A DNA stretch of 32,000 nucleotides from NCBI RefSeq assembly GCF_000009705.1, contig NC_003272.1:1410001-1442000 (forward strand), written 5' to 3'. The translations under genes were made by a program, and so were the position numbers. Source of the DNA: Nostoc sp. PCC 7120 = FACHB-418 (GTDB lineage Bacteria; Cyanobacteriota; Cyanobacteriia; Cyanobacteriales; Nostocaceae). The notes under the pieces were generated by a model, which was not told where the DNA came from, did not search any database, and was given only the letters and a program-made list of their open reading frames with translations. This document shows, one piece after another, positions 3,295 through 32,000 of this stretch (position 1 is the stretch's first letter; each line of letters opens with the position of its first letter).

Positions 3295-5427
3295 GTGAAC
3301 ACCTTACGCCGCCAAGAGAATGATTTTTGGCATCGATCGCATCAGCCAATTCCCGAAGAACTTCCTACCTTGGAAGCTAACGAATTTTTACCCCATATTG
3401 GGAAATGGACAAGTATCGGTGGGGTAGTTGTCTTCAGTATCTTTATTGTGGGGGTGGTGCTAACATCTGTTCTCAAGTACAACGTGACGGTGAAAGTGCC
3501 GGCGACTATTCGCCCTGTGGGAGAATTAAGGCTGGTACAGTCGCTAATTAATGGCAAAATTCTCAAGATTAGTGTTGCAGAAAATCAGATGGTAGCCGAA
3601 GGACAAGCGATCGCCTACATTGATGATTCCCGCCTCCAGACTCAAAAGAGCCAGTTACAAAACCTCATCCAGCAAAGTCAACTACAACTCAATAAAATCG
3701 ATGCACAGTTGGGAGAAATCGACGCTCAAATTACAGCACAGACAAATTTAAACGATCGCACCACAATCGCTGCACAAGCTGAACTGAGTGGTACACAACG
3801 CAACTATGCCGATCAGCAAGTGAAAGCTACGGCGGATATGACACAAGCACAATCAGCCTTAACTTTAGCCAGGATCCAAAAAGACCGCCTGCAACGGGAA
3901 AAGCTGTTAACGGCGACTGTGCGAGAAACAGAAGCCGCTTTGCAGTTAGCCAGGGTGCAAAGCGATCGCCTACAACGGGAAAAGCTGCTAAAAACTACCG
4001 TAGATGAAGCGGAAAGAGGCTTAAAATTGGCGAGAGAACAACGCGATCGTTTACGACGGGATAGGCTTCTCAGGACGACTGTGCAAGAAACACAGACGGC
4101 TTTGAACTTAGCAAAGGCGCAACAAGAAAGATTACAAAGGGAACAACTCTTAGCCAAAACTGTGCAGGAAGCAGAAACCGCTTTAAATTTAGCCAGGGTA
4201 CAACGCGATCGCCTACAACAAGATAGAGTTTTAACTGCAACTGTCCAAGAAGCAGAAGCCGCCTTGAGTTTAGCTAGAGTACAGCGAGAAAGATTACAGC
4301 CGATAGTAGCATCAGGAGCGATCGCCCGTAGTTTCTTCGAGGAAAAAGACCAAGCCGTAATATCGGCGGAGGCGAGGCTGGAACAAGCCAAAGCTAACGC
4401 TAAAAATCTGCTGGAAGAGAAAGAACAAGCGGTGATTGCGGCGGAGGCGAAGTTGGAACAAGCCAAAGCCAACGCCAAAAATCTTTTGGAGGAGAAAGAA
4501 CAGGCTGTCAAATCAGCAGAAGCGAAGCTAGAACAAGCCAAAGCCAACGCTAAAAATCTCTTAGAAGAAAAAGACCAAGGGGTGATTGCGGCGGAGGCGA
4601 AACTGGAACAAGCCAAAGCCAACGCCAAAAATCTCTTAGAAGAGAAAGAACAAGAGGTGATTGCGGCGGAGGCGAAACTGGAACAAGCCAAAGCTAACGC
4701 CAAAAATCTCCAAGAAGAAAAAGACCAAGCTTTAACAGTGGCGCAAACAAATCTCGCCAAGGCCAGAACAGCGATAAATCCCAATGATGCTAACGTGACT
4801 GTAGCATCGGAACGAATTAAACAAGAACAAGCCAGGGGTGAAGTTACCTTAGCCGCCTTGAAAAAAGAAAGAGAAACTTTGCTACAACAACGCCTAGAAT
4901 TTCAAAAACAACTGGATAGAAACCGCAAAGAACTACAACAAGCCGAAAATGACTTAAAACAGAGTATAGTCCGCGCACCCATCGCCGGGACAGTGCTGCA
5001 ATTGAATTTGCGTAACCCTGGACAGGTAGTACAACCAAGTGAGGCGATCGCTCAAATTGCGCCGTTAAATGCACCAATACAGATCAAAGCTAACGTCCAG
5101 GCGCAAGATATCAACAAAGTCAAACCCGGTCAACAAGTCCAAATGCAGGTTTCTGCTTGTCCCTATCCAGACTACGGCACTCTCAAAGGAACAGTCAAAA
5201 CAATCGCCCCAGATGCCCTACCCGTAGCCAACAATAACCCACAGACCACCACAGCTAAAGCCACAGCCTATGAAGTCATTGTAGAACCACAAACCCCATA
5301 CGTTGGTAGAGGCGATCGGCAATGTCAACTTAAAACCGGGATGCAGGGTAAAGCAGATATTATTTCCCGTCGAGAAACAGTATTACGCTTCATCCTCCGC
5401 AAAGCCAGATTAATTGCAGATTTGTAA
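3295..5427 (+). CDS. HlyD-family membrane-fusion (periplasmic adaptor) protein with a greatly expanded coiled-coil
   Basis: 710-aa ORF with a GTG start. It has an N-terminal TM helix (WTSIGGVVVFSIFIVGVVLTSVL), lipoyl-like halves (KILKISVAENQMVAEGQAIAYID ... RAPIAGTVLQLNLRNPGQVVQPSEAIAQIAP) and a C-terminal beta-barrel-like region. About 300 aa of Q/R/E/A/K/L-rich repeats lie in between. It sits directly upstream of an ABC exporter. Confidence 0.85.
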   Translation: MNTLRRQENDFWHRSHQPIPEELPTLEANEFLPHIGKWTSIGGVVVFSIFIVGVVLTSVLKYNVTVKVPATIRPVGELRLVQSLINGKILKISVAENQMVAEGQAIAYIDDSRLQTQKSQLQNLIQQSQLQLNKIDAQLGEIDAQITAQTNLNDRTTIAAQAELSGTQRNYADQQVKATADMTQAQSALTLARIQKDRLQREKLLTATVRETEAALQLARVQSDRLQREKLLKTTVDEAERGLKLAREQRDRLRRDRLLRTTVQETQTALNLAKAQQERLQREQLLAKTVQEAETALNLARVQRDRLQQDRVLTATVQEAEAALSLARVQRERLQPIVASGAIARSFFEEKDQAVISAEARLEQAKANAKNLLEEKEQAVIAAEAKLEQAKANAKNLLEEKEQAVKSAEAKLEQAKANAKNLLEEKDQGVIAAEAKLEQAKANAKNLLEEKEQEVIAAEAKLEQAKANAKNLQEEKDQALTVAQTNLAKARTAINPNDANVTVASERIKQEQARGEVTLAALKKERETLLQQRLEFQKQLDRNRKELQQAENDLKQSIVRAPIAGTVLQLNLRNPGQVVQPSEAIAQIAPLNAPIQIKANVQAQDINKVKPGQQVQMQVSACPYPDYGTLKGTVKTIAPDALPVANNNPQTTTAKATAYEVIVEPQTPYVGRGDRQCQLKTGMQGKADIISRRETVLRFILRKARLIADL
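3859..4302 (+). repeat. In-frame tandem array A within hlyD: 5.5 units of 81 nt (27 aa)
   Basis: Units: LTLARIQKDRLQREKLLTATVRETEAA / LQLARVQSDRLQREKLLKTTVDEAERG / LKLAREQRDRLRRDRLLRTTVQETQTA / LNLAKAQQERLQREQLLAKTVQEAETA / LNLARVQRDRLQQDRVLTATVQEAEAA / LSLARVQRERLQP. Confidence 0.9.
4339..4776 (+). repeat. In-frame tandem array B within hlyD: 5 near-identical units of 75 nt (25 aa) plus one degenerate unit
   Basis: EEK(E/D)QAVIAAEAKLEQAKANAKNLL occurs five times, followed by EEKDQALTVAQTNLAKARTAI. Differences between units are mostly synonymous. Confidence 0.9.
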
Positions 5428-5570: not shown

Positions 5571-7739
5571 ATGCTTAATTTCTTCAAACTCCGAAAAAAT
5601 TACCCCTGTGTTTTACAGTTGAGTGAAGAAGATTGTGGAGCCGCTTGTATAGTTTCCATTTGTCGGCAACACGGACGCTTTTTAAGTATGAATAAAAGCC
5701 GTGAAGCAGTAGGGACTGGACAACTGGGTACAACCTTATTAGGTCTAAAACGTGGCTCAGAAAATCTCGGTTTTAATGCCAGAGCCGTGAAAGCATCCCC
5801 CGCCATCTTAGACAGAATTAAAGAAATTCAACTACCAGCAATTATTCATTGGCGGGGCTATCACTGGGTAGTTTTATATGGCAAAAAGGGAAGCAAATAT
5901 GTCATAGCTGATCCAGCCGTAGGCATTCGTTATATTCACCGGGAAGAGTTAACAGCCGCCTGGAATGGGGTCATGCTATTAATGGAGCCAGATCACCAGC
6001 GTTTTTCTCAACAGCCCCACGACAAACCACAGCCAGGATTTACCCGCTTTCTTCAGCGCATCTTGCCCTATCATGGGCTATTGTCCCAGGTTTTTATGAT
6101 CAACATTGTCCTGGGTATATTGGCTTTAGGCTCACCAGTCCTGATTCAAATCCTCACCGATGATGTCTTAGTTCGTGGCGATACTCAACTACTAACTGTG
6201 ATAGCGATCGCTGTCATCATCATGAATTTATTTAGTAGTGGTATGCAGGTATTAGAATCTACGATGATTGCCCATTTTAGCCAACGCCTGCAATTAGGTT
6301 TAGTCTTGGAATTTGGGCGGAGAATTCTGCAATTACCATTGACTTATTACGAAGCTCGTCGCAGTGGAGAGATTACCAGCCGACTTAGAGATATTAATGA
6401 AATTAACCAATTAGTCTCGCAAGTGGTAGTGCTTTTACCTAGCCAATTTTTCATAGCTGTAATTTCTTTTGGCTTAATGCTTTTTTATAGTTGGCAGTTA
6501 GCATTAGCGGTAATCCTCATCGGTGCATTGATGAGTTTAGCTACATTGCCGCTTTTACCAGTCCTGCAACAAAAAACTCGTAGTCTTTTAGTTTTAGGTT
6601 CAGAAAATCAAGGCGTGTTAGTAGAAACTTTTAAAGGCGCACAAGTACTTAAAACTACAAATGCTGCACCGCAATTTTGGGATGAATTACAAAATCGTTT
6701 TGGTCGTCTGGCAAATTTAACATTTAGTACTATTCAAATTGGCATTATCAACAATACTATTGCGAAATTTCTCTCTGCTATCGGCGGTGTAGTTTTATTA
6801 GGGCTAGGGAGTATTTTAGTTATCCAAGGAAAGTTAAGTATTGGTCAAATGTTAGCAATTAATGTACTACAAGTTAATGTATTGACATTAATTAGCTCAC
6901 TAGTAGGTTTAGTAGATGAATATTTTCGTTCCCAAACTGCTATCTCTCGGCTTTTGGAAGTGATTGATGCTACTCCCGAAGTAGATAATACTTCTCAAAA
7001 ACCATTCGCCCAAATCTCTAGTGATGCAGACATTCGTTTTTCACATATCAACTTTCACCATCCTGGTAGAGTTGACCTCTTGGAAGATTTTTCTCTCAAG
7101 CTACCAGGAGGACAAATTATAGCTTTAATTGGCAAGTCAGGCTGTGGTAAAAGTTCCTTAGCCAAACTCATGGCAGGATTATATCAGCCCAATTCTGGTA
7201 ATATCCGCATCGGCTTTTATAATATTCAAGATATTGCCCTTGATTGTTTACGGCAACAAGTAGTTTATGTACCTCAAGAACCTCATTTCTGGAGTCGTTC
7301 AATTTTAGAAAACTTTCGTTTAGGAAGTCCCCATATTTCCTTTGAAGAAGTCGTCACAGCTTGCCAAATTGCCGATGCTGATAGTTTTATTAGCCAACTA
7401 CCAAATAAGTATCAAACAGTGCTAGGAGAATTTGGAGCAAATCTTTCTGGAGGACAAAAACAAAGACTAGCGATCGCCAGAGGTATTCTCAATAATCCCC
7501 CAGTCCTAATTTTAGATGAAGCAACAGCCGGACTAGACCCAGTTAGTGAAACTCAAGTCCTTGATCGGTTGTTAGAATCACGTCAAGGTAAAACTACAAT
7601 TCTCATTACCCATCGTCCCAGCGTAGTCCACCGCGCTGATTGGATTGTATTACTTGATCAAGGCAAAATACAACTCCAAGGTAATTTAGAAGATTTCCTG
7701 TCTCAACAAGGAGAGCATCTAAAGTTTTTATCTCTATAA
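5571..7739 (+). CDS. Peptidase-C39-domain ABC transporter (double-glycine leader cleaving bacteriocin/peptide exporter)
   Basis: 722-aa ORF. N-terminal C39 motifs: LSEEDCGAACI (catalytic Cys), GYHWVVLYG (His), VIADPA. A multi-helix TM domain follows. NBD motifs: Walker A GKSGCGKSS, signature LSGGQKQRLAIARG, Walker B VLILDEAT, H-loop ILITHR. Confidence 0.9.
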   Translation: MLNFFKLRKNYPCVLQLSEEDCGAACIVSICRQHGRFLSMNKSREAVGTGQLGTTLLGLKRGSENLGFNARAVKASPAILDRIKEIQLPAIIHWRGYHWVVLYGKKGSKYVIADPAVGIRYIHREELTAAWNGVMLLMEPDHQRFSQQPHDKPQPGFTRFLQRILPYHGLLSQVFMINIVLGILALGSPVLIQILTDDVLVRGDTQLLTVIAIAVIIMNLFSSGMQVLESTMIAHFSQRLQLGLVLEFGRRILQLPLTYYEARRSGEITSRLRDINEINQLVSQVVVLLPSQFFIAVISFGLMLFYSWQLALAVILIGALMSLATLPLLPVLQQKTRSLLVLGSENQGVLVETFKGAQVLKTTNAAPQFWDELQNRFGRLANLTFSTIQIGIINNTIAKFLSAIGGVVLLGLGSILVIQGKLSIGQMLAINVLQVNVLTLISSLVGLVDEYFRSQTAISRLLEVIDATPEVDNTSQKPFAQISSDADIRFSHINFHHPGRVDLLEDFSLKLPGGQIIALIGKSGCGKSSLAKLMAGLYQPNSGNIRIGFYNIQDIALDCLRQQVVYVPQEPHFWSRSILENFRLGSPHISFEEVVTACQIADADSFISQLPNKYQTVLGEFGANLSGGQKQRLAIARGILNNPPVLILDEATAGLDPVSETQVLDRLLESRQGKTTILITHRPSVVHRADWIVLLDQGKIQLQGNLEDFLSQQGEHLKFLSL

Positions 7740-8140: not shown

Positions 8141-8329
8141 ATGTCAAACCAAATGCTAGCTTCTAATTTACTTGAAGATTTATCCTTAGATCAACAGCAA
8201 TCTTTGGCTGGTGGTCAAACCTTTGATGATGGAGATGATGAAGGCGGAAATACACGACTTGGCACTGGTGAAACTCGTCGCTATAGAATTAGAAGTGTCA
8301 GCATCGTTAGTGTCCGCAAATTGTCATAG
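8141..8329 (+). CDS. Double-glycine-leader precursor peptide 1 (25-aa leader + 37-aa core)
   Basis: MSNQMLASNLLEDLSLDQQQSLAGG | QTFDDGDDEGGNTRLGTGETRRYRIRSVSIVSVRKLS. Strong SD 9 nt upstream. The leader is shared with two neighbouring ORFs. The gene lies downstream of a C39-ABC exporter and has its own terminator. Confidence 0.8.
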   Translation: MSNQMLASNLLEDLSLDQQQSLAGGQTFDDGDDEGGNTRLGTGETRRYRIRSVSIVSVRKLS

Positions 8330-8673: not shown

Positions 8674-8961
8674 ATGTCTAATCAAACCGTTGCATCTAAT
8701 TTGTTGGCAGATTTATCCACAGAACAACAGCAGTTTCTGGTGGGTGGTCAGCAAACAACTCAACCACGACAAGGTCAAGGTGGTTGTCCGGGTGGTATGG
8801 GTATGGGTTCTGGTGGTATGGGTATGGGTTCTGGTGGTACTGATCAAGATAGCTGGGATCAAAATGGCTATGATCAGGAAGGGGGTGGCTCTGGAGGTAG
8901 CTTCGGTAGTCGCCGTCGCCGCTTGCGAGTAAGACTTTCCGGCTACGTCTATCTCAGATAA
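8674..8961 (+). CDS. Double-glycine-leader precursor peptide 2 (25-aa leader + 70-aa Gly-rich core)
   Basis: MSNQTVASNLLADLSTEQQQFLVGG | QQTTQPRQGQGGCPGGMGMGSGGMGMGSGGTDQDSWDQNGYDQEGGGSGGSFGSRRRRLRVRLSGYVYLR. SD 8 nt upstream. This frame was chosen over overlapping ORFs because it carries the conserved leader. Confidence 0.8.
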   Translation: MSNQTVASNLLADLSTEQQQFLVGGQQTTQPRQGQGGCPGGMGMGSGGMGMGSGGTDQDSWDQNGYDQEGGGSGGSFGSRRRRLRVRLSGYVYLR

Positions 8962-9484: not shown

Positions 9485-9691
9485 ATGTCAAATCAAGTTT
9501 GGCAATCCGATTTACTCGTGGAACTATCCACAGAAGACCAGCAAAATCTAGCTGGAGGTCGCTGGGGTCATTTCGGTGGTTTCGGTGGTTTCCGGGGTCG
9601 CTCTTGGTTTAGAACAGGCAGGTTCTGGGGAGGTCGCTCTTGGTTCAGACCAGGTGGTTTCCGGGGTCGCTGGGGTGGTTACTGGAGATAA
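9485..9691 (+). CDS. Double-glycine-leader precursor peptide 3 (25-aa leader + 43-aa Gly/Arg/Trp/Phe core)
   Basis: MSNQVWQSDLLVELSTEDQQNLAGG | RWGHFGGFGGFRGRSWFRTGRFWGGRSWFRPGGFRGRWGGYWR. GAGGAAAAG SD 9 nt upstream and own terminator. Confidence 0.8.
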   Translation: MSNQVWQSDLLVELSTEDQQNLAGGRWGHFGGFGGFRGRSWFRTGRFWGGRSWFRPGGFRGRWGGYWR

Positions 9692-13632: not shown

Positions 13633-13657
13633 AATTTTGAATTTTGAATTTTGAATT
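13633..13657. repeat. STRR heptamer array (AATTTTG)x3.5
   Basis: Read directly. It is the reverse complement of the array at 14799-14829. Confidence 0.85.
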
Positions 13658-14798: not shown

Positions 14799-14829
14799 AA
14801 TTCAAAATTCAAAATTCAAAATTCAAAAT
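14799..14829. repeat. STRR heptamer array (AATTCAA)x4.5
   Basis: Read directly. It begins 16 nt after the stop codon of the reductase gene. Confidence 0.85.
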
Positions 14830-19474: not shown

Positions 19475-20437
19475 ATGGAAAACATCTCTGTGTGGGTAGG
19501 CATTGACGTGAGCAAAGCGACCCTCGATGTTTATATCCGTCCCATCGGTAAAGCATTGAAGTTTGCTAATACAGAACTAGAAATATTTAATTTAGTTGAA
19601 CAATTAAAATTTTATGATTTGAACCTCATCGTACTAGAAGCAACCGGAGGATTAGAAACAGAACTGGTCATTCAACTACAGGCAGCAATGCTACCAGTAG
19701 CATTAATCAATCCACGTCAAGGACGAAATTTTGCCAAAGCCACTGGTAAACTCGCCAAAACAGATGCTATCGATGCACAAATATTGGCACACTTTGGGGA
19801 AGCAATGAAACCTCAAGTGTTAAACATTGAGTCACAAGCATCTCGTCAATTAGGAGAATTAATTAGTCGTCGAAGACAATTAGTTGAGATGCAAACTGCT
19901 GAAAAAAATCGACGCTCACGCGCCCGTGGTAAAGCATTGGCAGATATTGAAGCACACATTGAATATCTTGACGAACGTCTCAAACAACTCAATCAAGAAA
20001 TTGAGCAATTAACTCAAAACAATCAACAATGGATTGAAAAAGTTAATTTACTCAAAACTACTCCTGGTATTGGCCAAGTTATTTCGACAACTCTGGTTTC
20101 TGATTTGCCAGAACTCGGTCAACTCACTGCCAAACAAATTTCTCGCTTAGTTGGTGTTGCACCTATCAATCATGATAGTGGTCAACACAAAGGTAAGCGC
20201 ATGATTAATGGCGGTCGCGCTCATGTTCGTGCCACTCTTTATATGGGTGCTGTTGTTGCTATGCGTCATAATCCGGTTATCAAGGCCTTTTATGAGCGTC
20301 TTGTCGAACGTGGTAAATCGAAAAAATTAGCTCTCACTGCTTGCGTTCATAAAATGTTAGTCATTTTAAATGCAATGGTTCGGGATAATTTACCTTGGCG
20401 TGTTACTGACAACTTACAACCCATTCCCAACGCTTAA
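19475..20437 (+). CDS. IS110-family transposase (DEDD RuvC-like N-domain + Transposase_20 C-domain)
   Basis: 320 aa. Motifs: VGIDVSK, LEATGGLE, AKTDAIDAQILA, TTPGIGQVISTTLV, SGQHKGKRMINGGRAHVRATLYMGA. No frameshifts. Confidence 0.9.
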   Translation: MENISVWVGIDVSKATLDVYIRPIGKALKFANTELEIFNLVEQLKFYDLNLIVLEATGGLETELVIQLQAAMLPVALINPRQGRNFAKATGKLAKTDAIDAQILAHFGEAMKPQVLNIESQASRQLGELISRRRQLVEMQTAEKNRRSRARGKALADIEAHIEYLDERLKQLNQEIEQLTQNNQQWIEKVNLLKTTPGIGQVISTTLVSDLPELGQLTAKQISRLVGVAPINHDSGQHKGKRMINGGRAHVRATLYMGAVVAMRHNPVIKAFYERLVERGKSKKLALTACVHKMLVILNAMVRDNLPWRVTDNLQPIPNA

Positions 20438-23741: not shown

Positions 23742-23820
23742 CCCAATTTGTATTTTCCGTCAACAAGACTAACCCACTCTCTATCCCAGGGGGTGGGAGT
23801 CTTATTATTAAATCAGGGGA

Positions 23821-23897
23821 TAGGTAATAGGTAATAGGTGATTGGTGATTGGTGATTACCCATTATTCATTACCCATTACCCGTTACCCATTACCCA
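23821..23897. repeat. Palindromic STRR: (TAGGTAA/TTGGTGA)x5 abutting (TTACCCA)x6
   Basis: Read directly. The two halves are near reverse complements, with about one mismatch per heptamer. Confidence 0.85.
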
Positions 23898-31552: not shown

Positions 31553-31612
31553 GGGATTGGGGATTGGGTACTGGGGATTGGGTACTGGGGATTGGGTAAT
31601 GGGGATTGGGTA
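31553..31612. repeat. Tandem 14-nt STRR (GGGGATTGGGTACT x4)
   Basis: Read directly. Confidence 0.85.
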
Positions 31613-32000
31613 TTCAAAAAAATTCTCCCTCATTTCCTTCATCTTTCTTATCTCCCCTATGTTCCTTATCTCCCTCACCCCCAGCCCACATCATTAAATT
31701 TCGTTTTATGCAGGATATTTTACTACCTCCTCCTGAAGACAGAATTTGGCGCAAAACTTACCATAAGATATGTTAAGATAAAACCTGGCTACAAGAGGAG
31801 TTTGCCACTCACAACACGCAAGGCAGCTTCCCGTGGTTTAGGCACATCACCTGCGATTCATGTAGGTCAAGCCTGATCGTTAGGGTAGCATTACTGCTTT
31901 ATTGGGCGTAGTCGCAAGTGCGATTTCCCTGAGGGTAGCGACTTCTCACAACCAGCCCTTTGGGCGGCTTCCCGATGGGTAAATTAACAACGCATACGCT

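Follow-up and report, generated by a model that had tools for sequence, protein, structure and literature searches.

Among the described systems closest to the one reported here are the cyanobacterial clusters for the export of double-glycine bacteriocins, which, according to Wang et al. 2011 (PMC3140520), consist of a HlyD protein, a C39 ATP-binding cassette (ABC) transporter and precursor peptides. In current models of type I secretion and of tripartite pumps, the adaptor hairpin is a strut of constant length whose size matches the periplasm and the duct in the outer membrane. Adaptor hairpins become longer or shorter when heptads are inserted into, or deleted from, both of their helices (Symmons et al. 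2015, PMC4446572), and EmrA was found to have an extended coiled-coil of 127 Å (12.7 nm; PMC4158417). Here we describe the HlyD-family periplasmic adaptor encoded on the plus strand at 3295..5427 of a 32,000-nucleotide (nt) stretch of Nostoc sp. PCC 7120 = FACHB-418 (NC_003272.1, positions 1,410,001 to 1,442,000), which is referred to as the window and supplies all coordinates below. The gene has a GTG start and encodes 710 residues, the coordinates including the stop codon (open reading frame (ORF) list and Pfam). We place a probability of roughly 0.8 on the reading that its product is the adaptor of a C39 ABC exporter for double-glycine peptides and that its hairpin is built of paired 27/25-residue modules, of which there are five here.

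A preliminary description of the locus had proposed that two tandem arrays in this protein form the two arms of a single hairpin, array A ascending and array B descending, which were lengthened in step, and that the two arms should change together in orthologs. We compared arm lengths in 79 species-representative genomes and, separately, in 120 database protein clusters; the proline at the tip marked the boundary between the arms, and the outer ends were set by two conserved anchors, one within the first lipoyl half for the ascending arm and one ahead of the second lipoyl half for the descending arm. The arms were matched in 79/79 genomes (0/79 unmatched) and fell into the following five length classes, with a step per class of 27 residues in the ascending arm and 25 residues in the descending arm.

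1 module: ascending arm 117 residues, descending arm 120 residues; 40 genomes
2 modules: ascending arm 144 residues, descending arm 145 residues; 20 genomes
3 modules: ascending arm 171 residues, descending arm 170 residues; 13 genomes
4 modules: ascending arm 198 residues, descending arm 195 residues; 3 genomes
5 modules: ascending arm 225 residues, descending arm 220 residues; 3 genomes

The classes include, for example, Cylindrospermum NIES-4074 (one module), Nostoc linckia NIES-25 (two), Nostoc PCC 7107 and Calothrix PCC 7507 (three) and Aliinostoc HNIBRCY26 (four). With a one-module root, a neighbor-joining tree of the non-repeat parts, which is rough and includes paralogs, called for at least nine changes of class, or at least 14 steps of a single unit, and the matching is therefore not a single inherited event. 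The proposal that A and B are the two arms of one hairpin is thus supported both by the complete matching and by at least nine independent class changes. The structure with five units in each array (5+5) was present in independent assemblies of Nostoc parmelioides FACHB-3921, Anabaena subtropica FACHB-260 and Anabaena minutissima FACHB-250; the protein from N. parmelioides FACHB-3921 also has 710 residues and is 99% identical to the window adaptor. Arms of 225 and 220 residues were additionally found in three database proteins of 709 residues (P0008-P0010), two of which are named Anabaena sp. CCY 9402-a and ATCC 33047. Among the database protein clusters, 113/120 were matched. A more distant relative of 596 residues (P0122, 45% identical) had a 27-residue array (LQANEQEA...) and a 25-residue array (G.KKEYDTRKQ...) of its own with unit sequences unlike those of the window adaptor, which suggests that the module size is set by structure. 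One A junction of P0122 is spaced 25 residues and is thus without the 2-residue bulge described below.

The span first described, at 3859-4776, corresponds to adaptor residues 189-494, and the two distinct tandem arrays reported there are real, as autocorrelation, Tandem Repeats Finder (TRF) and a direct-repeat search agreed. In the protein autocorrelation, identity reached 61% at a lag of 27 for residues 189-336 and 79% at a lag of 25 for residues 349-494, with all other lags at ≤21%. TRF found a 75-nt array at 4334-4730 (5.3 copies, score 514), and the direct repeats in the DNA had a period of 81 nt at 3845-4298 and of 75 nt at 4317-4765. The 12-residue spacer between the arrays, IVASGAIARSFF, was recovered at residues 337-348. 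The repeats themselves stood, and only their counts, given earlier as 5.5 and 5+1 units, were refined to six and six in the natural phase (R-E-K...L-Q). The helical region exceeds the repeats and runs from residue 112 to residue 555. The features of the adaptor, all within the gene at 3295..5427, are as follows.

3397..3471, plus strand: N-terminal transmembrane anchor helix (residues 35-59; AlphaFold2 (AF2) helix; hydrophobic stretch WTSIGGVVVFSIFIVGVVLTSVL)
3475..3624, plus strand: N-terminal β-strands, among them those of the first lipoyl half (residues 61-110; AF2 strands 61-109; Biotin_lipoyl_2 at residues 81-110)
3628..3813, plus strand: ascending helix, non-repeat proximal part (residues 112-173; AF2 helix 112-201, confidence score 80-93; present in all length classes)
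3814..4299, plus strand: array A, the repeated part of the ascending arm, with one degenerate and five full units of 27 residues (81 nt) (residues 174-335; lag-27 identity, 81-nt direct repeats, AF2 breaks)
4300..4338, plus strand: hairpin tip PIVASGAIARSFF, 13 residues (residues 336-348; AF2 helices 312-339 and 345-442 joined by a loop at 340-344)
4339..4788, plus strand: array B, the repeated part of the descending arm, with five full and one degenerate unit of 25 residues (75 nt) (residues 349-498; TRF, lag-25 identity, AF2 helices)
4789..4959, plus strand: descending helix, non-repeat proximal part (residues 499-555, after a conserved INPND break; AF2 helix, confidence score 84-94; kept in all classes)
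4960..5424, plus strand: second half of the lipoyl domain, β-barrel domain and C-terminal helix (residues 556-710; HlyD_3 at residues 559-680; AF2 strands, helix 696-709)

The arrays share no DNA similarity, and a repeat search at the DNA level found no inverted repeats between them; coupled expansion of both arrays through an inverted repeat or palindrome was rejected on this ground. Since the arrays are unrelated in DNA, each class change needs at least two separate events. Array B contained exact repeats of 31 nt and 39 nt, and array A had none longer than 15 nt. As described earlier, the B units have drifted mainly at synonymous positions, with, for example, 10 synonymous versus 3 non-synonymous codons; it follows that the peptide sequence is under selection and that the units are not merely recent copies. 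The A units were orthologous level by level across species (in the five-module proteins, identity at the same level was 0.78 versus 0.65 within a protein), and for the B units, similarity within one protein equalled or exceeded that between species. Such similarity within a protein, despite the many synonymous differences among B units, points to strong constraint and perhaps to some homogenisation. An antisense ORF of 323 residues runs through both arrays (3813-4784, minus strand); its translation is repetitive and rich in Ala, Ser, Cys and Phe, and the ORF appears to be a side effect of repeats that lack stop codons and not a true gene.

All three Pfam matches of the adaptor exceeded the curated cut-offs, namely HlyD_3 (3.4e-18, residues 559-680), HlyD_D23 (2.1e-11, residues 480-641) and Biotin_lipoyl_2 (1.7e-7, residues 81-110), and they reveal a lipoyl domain split by the hairpin and a β-barrel domain. 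AF2 predicted a single N-terminal transmembrane anchor in both the 710-residue adaptor and a one-module ortholog. The family profile matched E. coli HlyD (8dck_C, 5.2e-22) and Serratia LipC (5nen_A, 3.9e-16), and hidden Markov model alignment placed the C-terminal region (residues 556-710) against residues 315-464 of 8dck_C. The top Foldseek matches of both models, each with a probability of 1.00, were EmrA (4tko), MacA, EmrAB-TolC and HlyD (5c21/5c22). These models and profiles support the assignment to the HlyD/EmrA type, in which an antiparallel hairpin would be inserted in the lipoyl domain.

The AF2 prediction was made on an 85-sequence alignment (mean predicted local distance difference test (pLDDT, the confidence score given above) 69.7; predicted template modeling score (pTM) 0.38), with pLDDT values and DSSP assignments as the output. 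Structure prediction had been put forward as a check on the hairpin, and the resulting secondary structure consisted of two long helical arms meeting at the tip, residues 340-344. In the ascending arm, helices were assigned to residues 112-201, 204-225, 234-255, 258-281, 284-309 and 312-339, with breaks at 202-203, 256-257, 282-283 and 310-311 and a low-confidence gap at 226-233; a 2-residue break thus occurs once per 27-residue unit, always within the polar R-E-K triplet. The descending arm was largely continuous, with helices at 345-442, 449-493 and 499-555. The one-module ortholog was predicted with a mean pLDDT of 79.7, and with 10-residue block means of 75-97 over the hairpin. It too had a 2-residue break, at 203-204, with a pLDDT of 80 for that 10-residue block, and because the same break is present there, the models indicate that the break is intrinsic to the adaptor family and was copied with each A unit.

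The unequal unit lengths were resolved by the hydrophobic core positions. In 146 A units these were 5, 9, 12, 16, 19, (23) and 26, followed by a spacing of +6, and in 146 B units they were 7, 10, 14, 17, 21, 24 and (28), followed by +4. Removing two residues at the A junction gave an identical core pattern in both arms, with spacings of 3 and 4 and one 4,4 stutter per 25 residues. This shared register is composed of two heptads and a hendecad (7-7-11), that is, 25 residues in 7 turns, and it was derived from the sequences independently of the models. A helix turns by about 100 degrees per residue, and an unbroken 27-residue period would place the core on the opposite face with each unit, a shift that a 2-residue bulge undoes. 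The structural answer is that 27 = 25 + 2, as the bulge of the ascending unit reconciles the two periods. It provides a clear example of how a helical hairpin can grow in modules whose length is no multiple of seven residues.

At the tip there is an RLS-like pattern, R333-x3-I337-x6-A344. R333 and G341 were invariant in the 85 sequences, and the +4 position was I, V or L. The RLS motif RxxxLxxxxxxS/T is located at the hairpin tip for docking of the outer-membrane factor, and substitution of its Ser by Ala is tolerated (PMC3391258). The idea that the adaptor has no outer-membrane factor partner of the usual geometry was not supported: the tip arginine and the hydrophobic position of the RLS-like pattern are conserved, and its third position varies between S, A and P.

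We propose that the hairpin, which would leave and re-enter the lipoyl domain and carry an RLS-like tip, is made of stackable modules. One module would be a 27-residue ascending unit paired with a 25-residue descending unit, the former composed of 25 helical residues and a 2-residue bulge in the always-polar R-E-K triplet. With the bulge looped out, both arms would follow the same core spacing, and each module would add approximately 3.7 nm of a low-twist antiparallel helix pair. The basal family has one module, and the window adaptor has five, with arms of about 225 and 220 residues (four extra modules per arm). The arrays presumably expand and contract by separate events, either slippage or unequal crossing-over, and selection for a closed, in-register hairpin presumably removes the unmatched intermediates. 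In the most probable working model, the standard one for HlyD-type adaptors, oligomers would surround the ABC transporter, the hairpins would form a helical tube, and the tip would dock onto a TolC-like factor. We infer that unit k of one arm pairs with unit k of the other, that the hairpin is straight, that the tube is hexameric, and that it docks to an HgdD-like factor encoded elsewhere.

The length of the hairpin had been put at about 22 nm, a value that is too low, as only the repeats were counted. At 1.5 Å per residue, the 211 residues of the descending arm (345-555) would give a whole hairpin of about 31 nm if straight, and the 112 residues of the one-module ortholog about 17 nm. The 445-residue helical span of the window adaptor was the largest among the relatives surveyed. 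Relatives of up to 1070 residues were considered as possible carriers of longer hairpins and were rejected, as they owe the additional residues to N-terminal extensions and have helical spans of only about 139-241 residues. An adaptation to a thick cell envelope, which had been suggested earlier, was not supported: orthologous loci in close Nostocales relatives carry one to five modules, and one metagenome-assembled genome (MAG) carries one-module and two-module paralogs. The cyanobacterial sacculus is thicker than that of E. coli (PMC4453526), and septa span 26-79 nm (PMC6630896); our literature search yielded no figure for how wide the lateral periplasm is in Anabaena or Nostoc.

Several observations weigh against our reading of the adaptor and its modular hairpin. 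A five-module tube would exceed those of one-module orthologs with the same type of ABC transporter by about 15 nm, and a single periplasm could hardly accommodate such lengths. The outer-membrane factor is probably also the same for these orthologs, and a single MAG, that of Desmonostoc vinosum HA7617-LM4, carries paralogs of unlike length. The AF2 confidence was moderate, with pLDDT <50 at residues 222-240, 252-261 and 419-449. At the third position of the RLS-like pattern the window adaptor has Ala, and its orthologs have S, A or P. Finally, 7/120 protein clusters had unmatched arms, including one from a 401-kb NCBI contig (P0028; L086:3001-4752, GCA_032153685.1) with three distinct A units and two full B units. 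Its A units are about 90% identical in nucleotides, and two are identical in protein; P0028 may be a true one-unit mismatch or may reflect an undetected collapse of array B.

The main rival keeps the one-to-one pairing of modules but does without a straight rod of 31 nm: the regularly spaced breaks would act as hinges at which the hairpin bends or folds back into a more compact CusB-like bundle, and its reach across the periplasm would then alter little with module number. We regard this as unlikely. The AF2 break at every unit of the ascending arm would suit such hinges, but a sharp fold needs both arms broken, and the descending arm is predicted to run in very long unbroken helices (345-442, 449-493) that lack counterparts of the ascending breaks. 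Although the CusB hairpin does fold back into a four-helix bundle (PMC4446572), the nearest folds of the window adaptor, EmrA and HlyD, have straight long hairpins. Folding would remove the problem of fitting adaptors 15 nm apart into one envelope and is compatible with the low model confidence in the middle of the hairpin, whereas the register of 25 residues in 7 turns fits a continuous low-twist helix pair.

It is far less probable that the long arrays in the window, or their equality, are an assembly artefact. The 31-nt and 39-nt exact repeats of array B are of the kind that would favor such errors, and short-read assemblies of the same strain give B arrays of 2, 3 and 4 units. However, errors of this type shorten arrays and do not lengthen them, the independent assemblies of other species show 5+5, and 4+4, 3+3, 2+2 and 1+1 structures occur in assemblies at the scale of megabases or of complete chromosomes; mis-assembly of the repeats, named earlier as a risk, is therefore not the case. 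The seven unmatched clusters were derived from Logan (P0002, P0003 and P0006), from JGI metagenome contigs (P0004 and P0020) and from other NCBI assemblies (P0028 and P0036). Three of them (P0002, P0003 and P0004) equal the window protein elsewhere and are without one, two or three B units. P0003 was represented by five Logan contigs from five public sequencing runs (loci L081-L085), which had zero mismatches to the window gene except for a 150-nt deletion, and the junction of this deletion (in L081) is a 31-nt exact repeat. Logan contigs by construction never hold the same 31-mer twice (PMC12424806). From the position of the deletion and this rule, the sequences indicate that P0003 is an assembly collapse and not an allele, and we rejected it as evidence against the co-variation of the arms; the other Logan-derived variants (P0002 and P0006) are probably collapses as well. 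Near-identical 75-nt units collapse in k-mer assemblers and create false unmatched proteins in databases, which calls for caution in surveys of repeat number on such assemblies.

Equally remote, and effectively refuted, is the explanation that the arrays are structurally uncoupled, independent expansions with equal counts from shared ancestry or chance, for although the arrays have no shared DNA similarity or inverted symmetry and evolve differently (A units orthologous by level, B units more homogenised), all 79 genomes are matched over five classes with at least nine independent class changes, the divergent P0122 has its own 27/25 pair, and both arms have a common core register.

With the modular hairpin as the preferred reading, its genetic setting can be described. 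The gene for the partner exporter starts 144 nt downstream of the adaptor gene on the same strand, and three candidate cargo ORFs follow.

5571..7739, plus strand: partner ABC exporter with an N-terminal C39 peptidase domain, 722 residues (Pfam Peptidase_C39 9.8e-35 at residues 11-141, ABC_membrane, ABC_tran)
8141..8329, plus strand: candidate cargo 1, a 62-residue peptide with a double-glycine leader (MSNQMLASNLLEDLSLDQQQSLAGG) (ORF list; similar ORFs in related loci)
8674..8961, plus strand: candidate cargo 2, a 95-residue glycine-rich peptide with a double-glycine leader (…LSTEQQQFLVGG) (ORF lists)
9485..9691, plus strand: candidate cargo 3, a 68-residue peptide rich in Gly, Arg, Trp and Phe with a double-glycine leader (…LSTEDQQNLAGG) (ORF list)

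The C39-ABC gene lies directly downstream of the adaptor gene in 77/79 related loci, with approximately 70-99% identity, and its product has about 720 residues whatever the module number; the hairpin alone varies. The operon is an ordinary one, the known bacteriocin-type export cluster of cyanobacteria (PMC3140520), and is conserved in all length classes. The three candidate cargo ORFs begin with MSNQ...L..LS...QQ.L.GG, which we take as predicted leaders, and comparable ORFs flank most of the related loci. Candidate cargo 2 matched no Pfam family. The cargo cores are of low complexity, one being rich in Asp and Gly, one in Gly, Met and Ser, and one in Gly, Arg, Trp and Phe, and all end in basic or aromatic tails; within the Gly/Met/Ser-rich candidate, 8791-8839 is a tandem repeat of 21 nt without mismatches. 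Module number showed no clear trend with cargo length beyond phylogeny, the neighboring double-glycine ORFs ranging from 39 to 132 residues over the classes. One-module loci often have extra, longer double-glycine ORFs (90-130 residues) upstream of the adaptor (loci L001-L080), and loci with three or more modules mostly have just the shorter downstream ones; this difference in upstream ORFs may follow phylogeny. No gene for an outer-membrane factor was present among the window ORFs scanned, several shorter ORFs lying outside that scan. At least eight adaptors of Anabaena PCC 7120 are reported to share the unlinked outer-membrane factor HgdD (PMC8277102).

Elsewhere in the window, two adjacent genes of similar size (152-964 and 1069-1821) encode 270 and 250 residues. 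The first encodes a metallophosphoesterase (Metallophos_2, 9e-23). The second had no Pfam match at 1e-5 and shares with its neighbor a similar N-terminal MK/NK..IL/MS..H/G motif, and its product looks like a diverged paralog of the metallophosphoesterase. An IS110-family transposase gene (DEDD_Tnp_IS110 and Transposase_20) is located at 19475-20437 between housekeeping-type genes. Intergenic heptanucleotide tandem repeats (AGGTGAT, ATTACCC, GGGATTG, AATTCAA and AATTTTG) were found at 23815-23897, 31553-31614, 14799-14829 and 13633-13657, and these are reminiscent of the STRR (short tandemly repeated repetitive) sequences that occur in heterocystous cyanobacteria.

As to the meaning of the length series, we put forward only tentatively, and with more doubt than belief, that hairpin length serves as a ruler which evolution can extend or shorten in quantised steps of one module (about 3.7 nm), with a range of about 17 to about 31 nm. 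Such a ruler would track real differences in the distance between the cytoplasmic and outer membranes, be it between strains of Nostocales, between cell types or between sites in the envelope, or it would alter engagement of the outer-membrane factor. If this were true, altered engagement could include the adaptor sheathing a shared outer-membrane factor or bypassing tip-to-tip docking, and tripartite exporters would tolerate or exploit a far wider range of conduit lengths than fixed-geometry models assume. The natural series, in which hairpins would differ by up to about 15 nm in 3.7-nm steps, is a ready experiment on the tolerance of length mismatch, and it bears on whether adaptor length follows or sets the envelope spacing and on how selection keeps two unlinked arrays in step.

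A comparable principle is that of Braun's lipoprotein Lpp, in which the residue count of a coiled-coil would define the distance across the periplasm. Lpp forms parallel trimers and links peptidoglycan to the outer membrane, and to our knowledge there is no natural quantised length series of such a kind. A ruler role for the adaptor is speculative.

Among characterized adaptors, E. coli HlyD and Serratia LipC (8dck, 5c21/5c22 and 5nen) resemble the window adaptor in having a single anchor, a hairpin-split lipoyl domain, a β-barrel, no membrane-proximal (MP) domain and a gene beside that for an ABC exporter. In contrast to these proteins, the partner ABC transporter of the window adaptor has an active-type C39 peptidase domain, and the predicted cargo comprises small double-glycine peptides rather than RTX proteins. 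No tandem-repeat modules were seen among the non-Nostocales relatives surveyed, and the window adaptor has 445 residues between the lipoyl halves, compared with 185-241 in most relatives surveyed. Aquifex aeolicus EmrA (4tko) was the best Foldseek match for both models and shares the lipoyl and β-barrel domains, the lack of an MP domain and a long rod-like hairpin. However, EmrA serves a major facilitator superfamily (MFS) pump, and its hairpin is about 12.7 nm, compared with about 17 nm (one-module) and about 31 nm (five-module) as estimated from helix lengths; the EmrA hairpin is not reported to be built of repeats. The bacteriocin export clusters (PMC3140520, accessible part) have the same gene set and order and double-glycine precursors, and that part is a catalogue without a description of variation in the length of the adaptor hairpin.

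Three relatives of 600-673 residues (P0129, P0168 and P0192) revealed another type of extension, in which the descending arm has a 46-residue period and the ascending arm a longer insertion, the arms being unequal (about 183-195 versus 164 residues). The ascending insertion of P0129 and P0168 contains an apparently non-helical loop with Cys, e.g., LASCDRDAICNISS.

The gene family, the operon type and the principle of matched arm changes are already known. Our literature searches, which were incomplete in coverage, found no prior description of adaptor hairpins built of repeats, and the 27/25 modular mechanism, the period-reconciling bulge, the ortholog series of one to five modules and the resulting hairpin length appear to be undescribed. 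The nearest precedent is the rule of Symmons et al., which is shared as far as paired arm changes are concerned. In the wider family, represented at 50% identity and with arms measured to the invariant tip glycine, the arms formed a ladder of (95,90), (102,97), (109,104), (116,111), (123,118) and (130,125), that is, steps of +7/+7 as the rule states, with the 95/90 and 123/118 classes predominating. The Nostocales subfamily shares the principle of matched arms but not the equal gain or loss of heptads on both helices (27 versus 25); its step is instead a 27/25-residue repeat module of about 3.7 nm, reconciled by a bulge and iterated up to five times among close orthologs.

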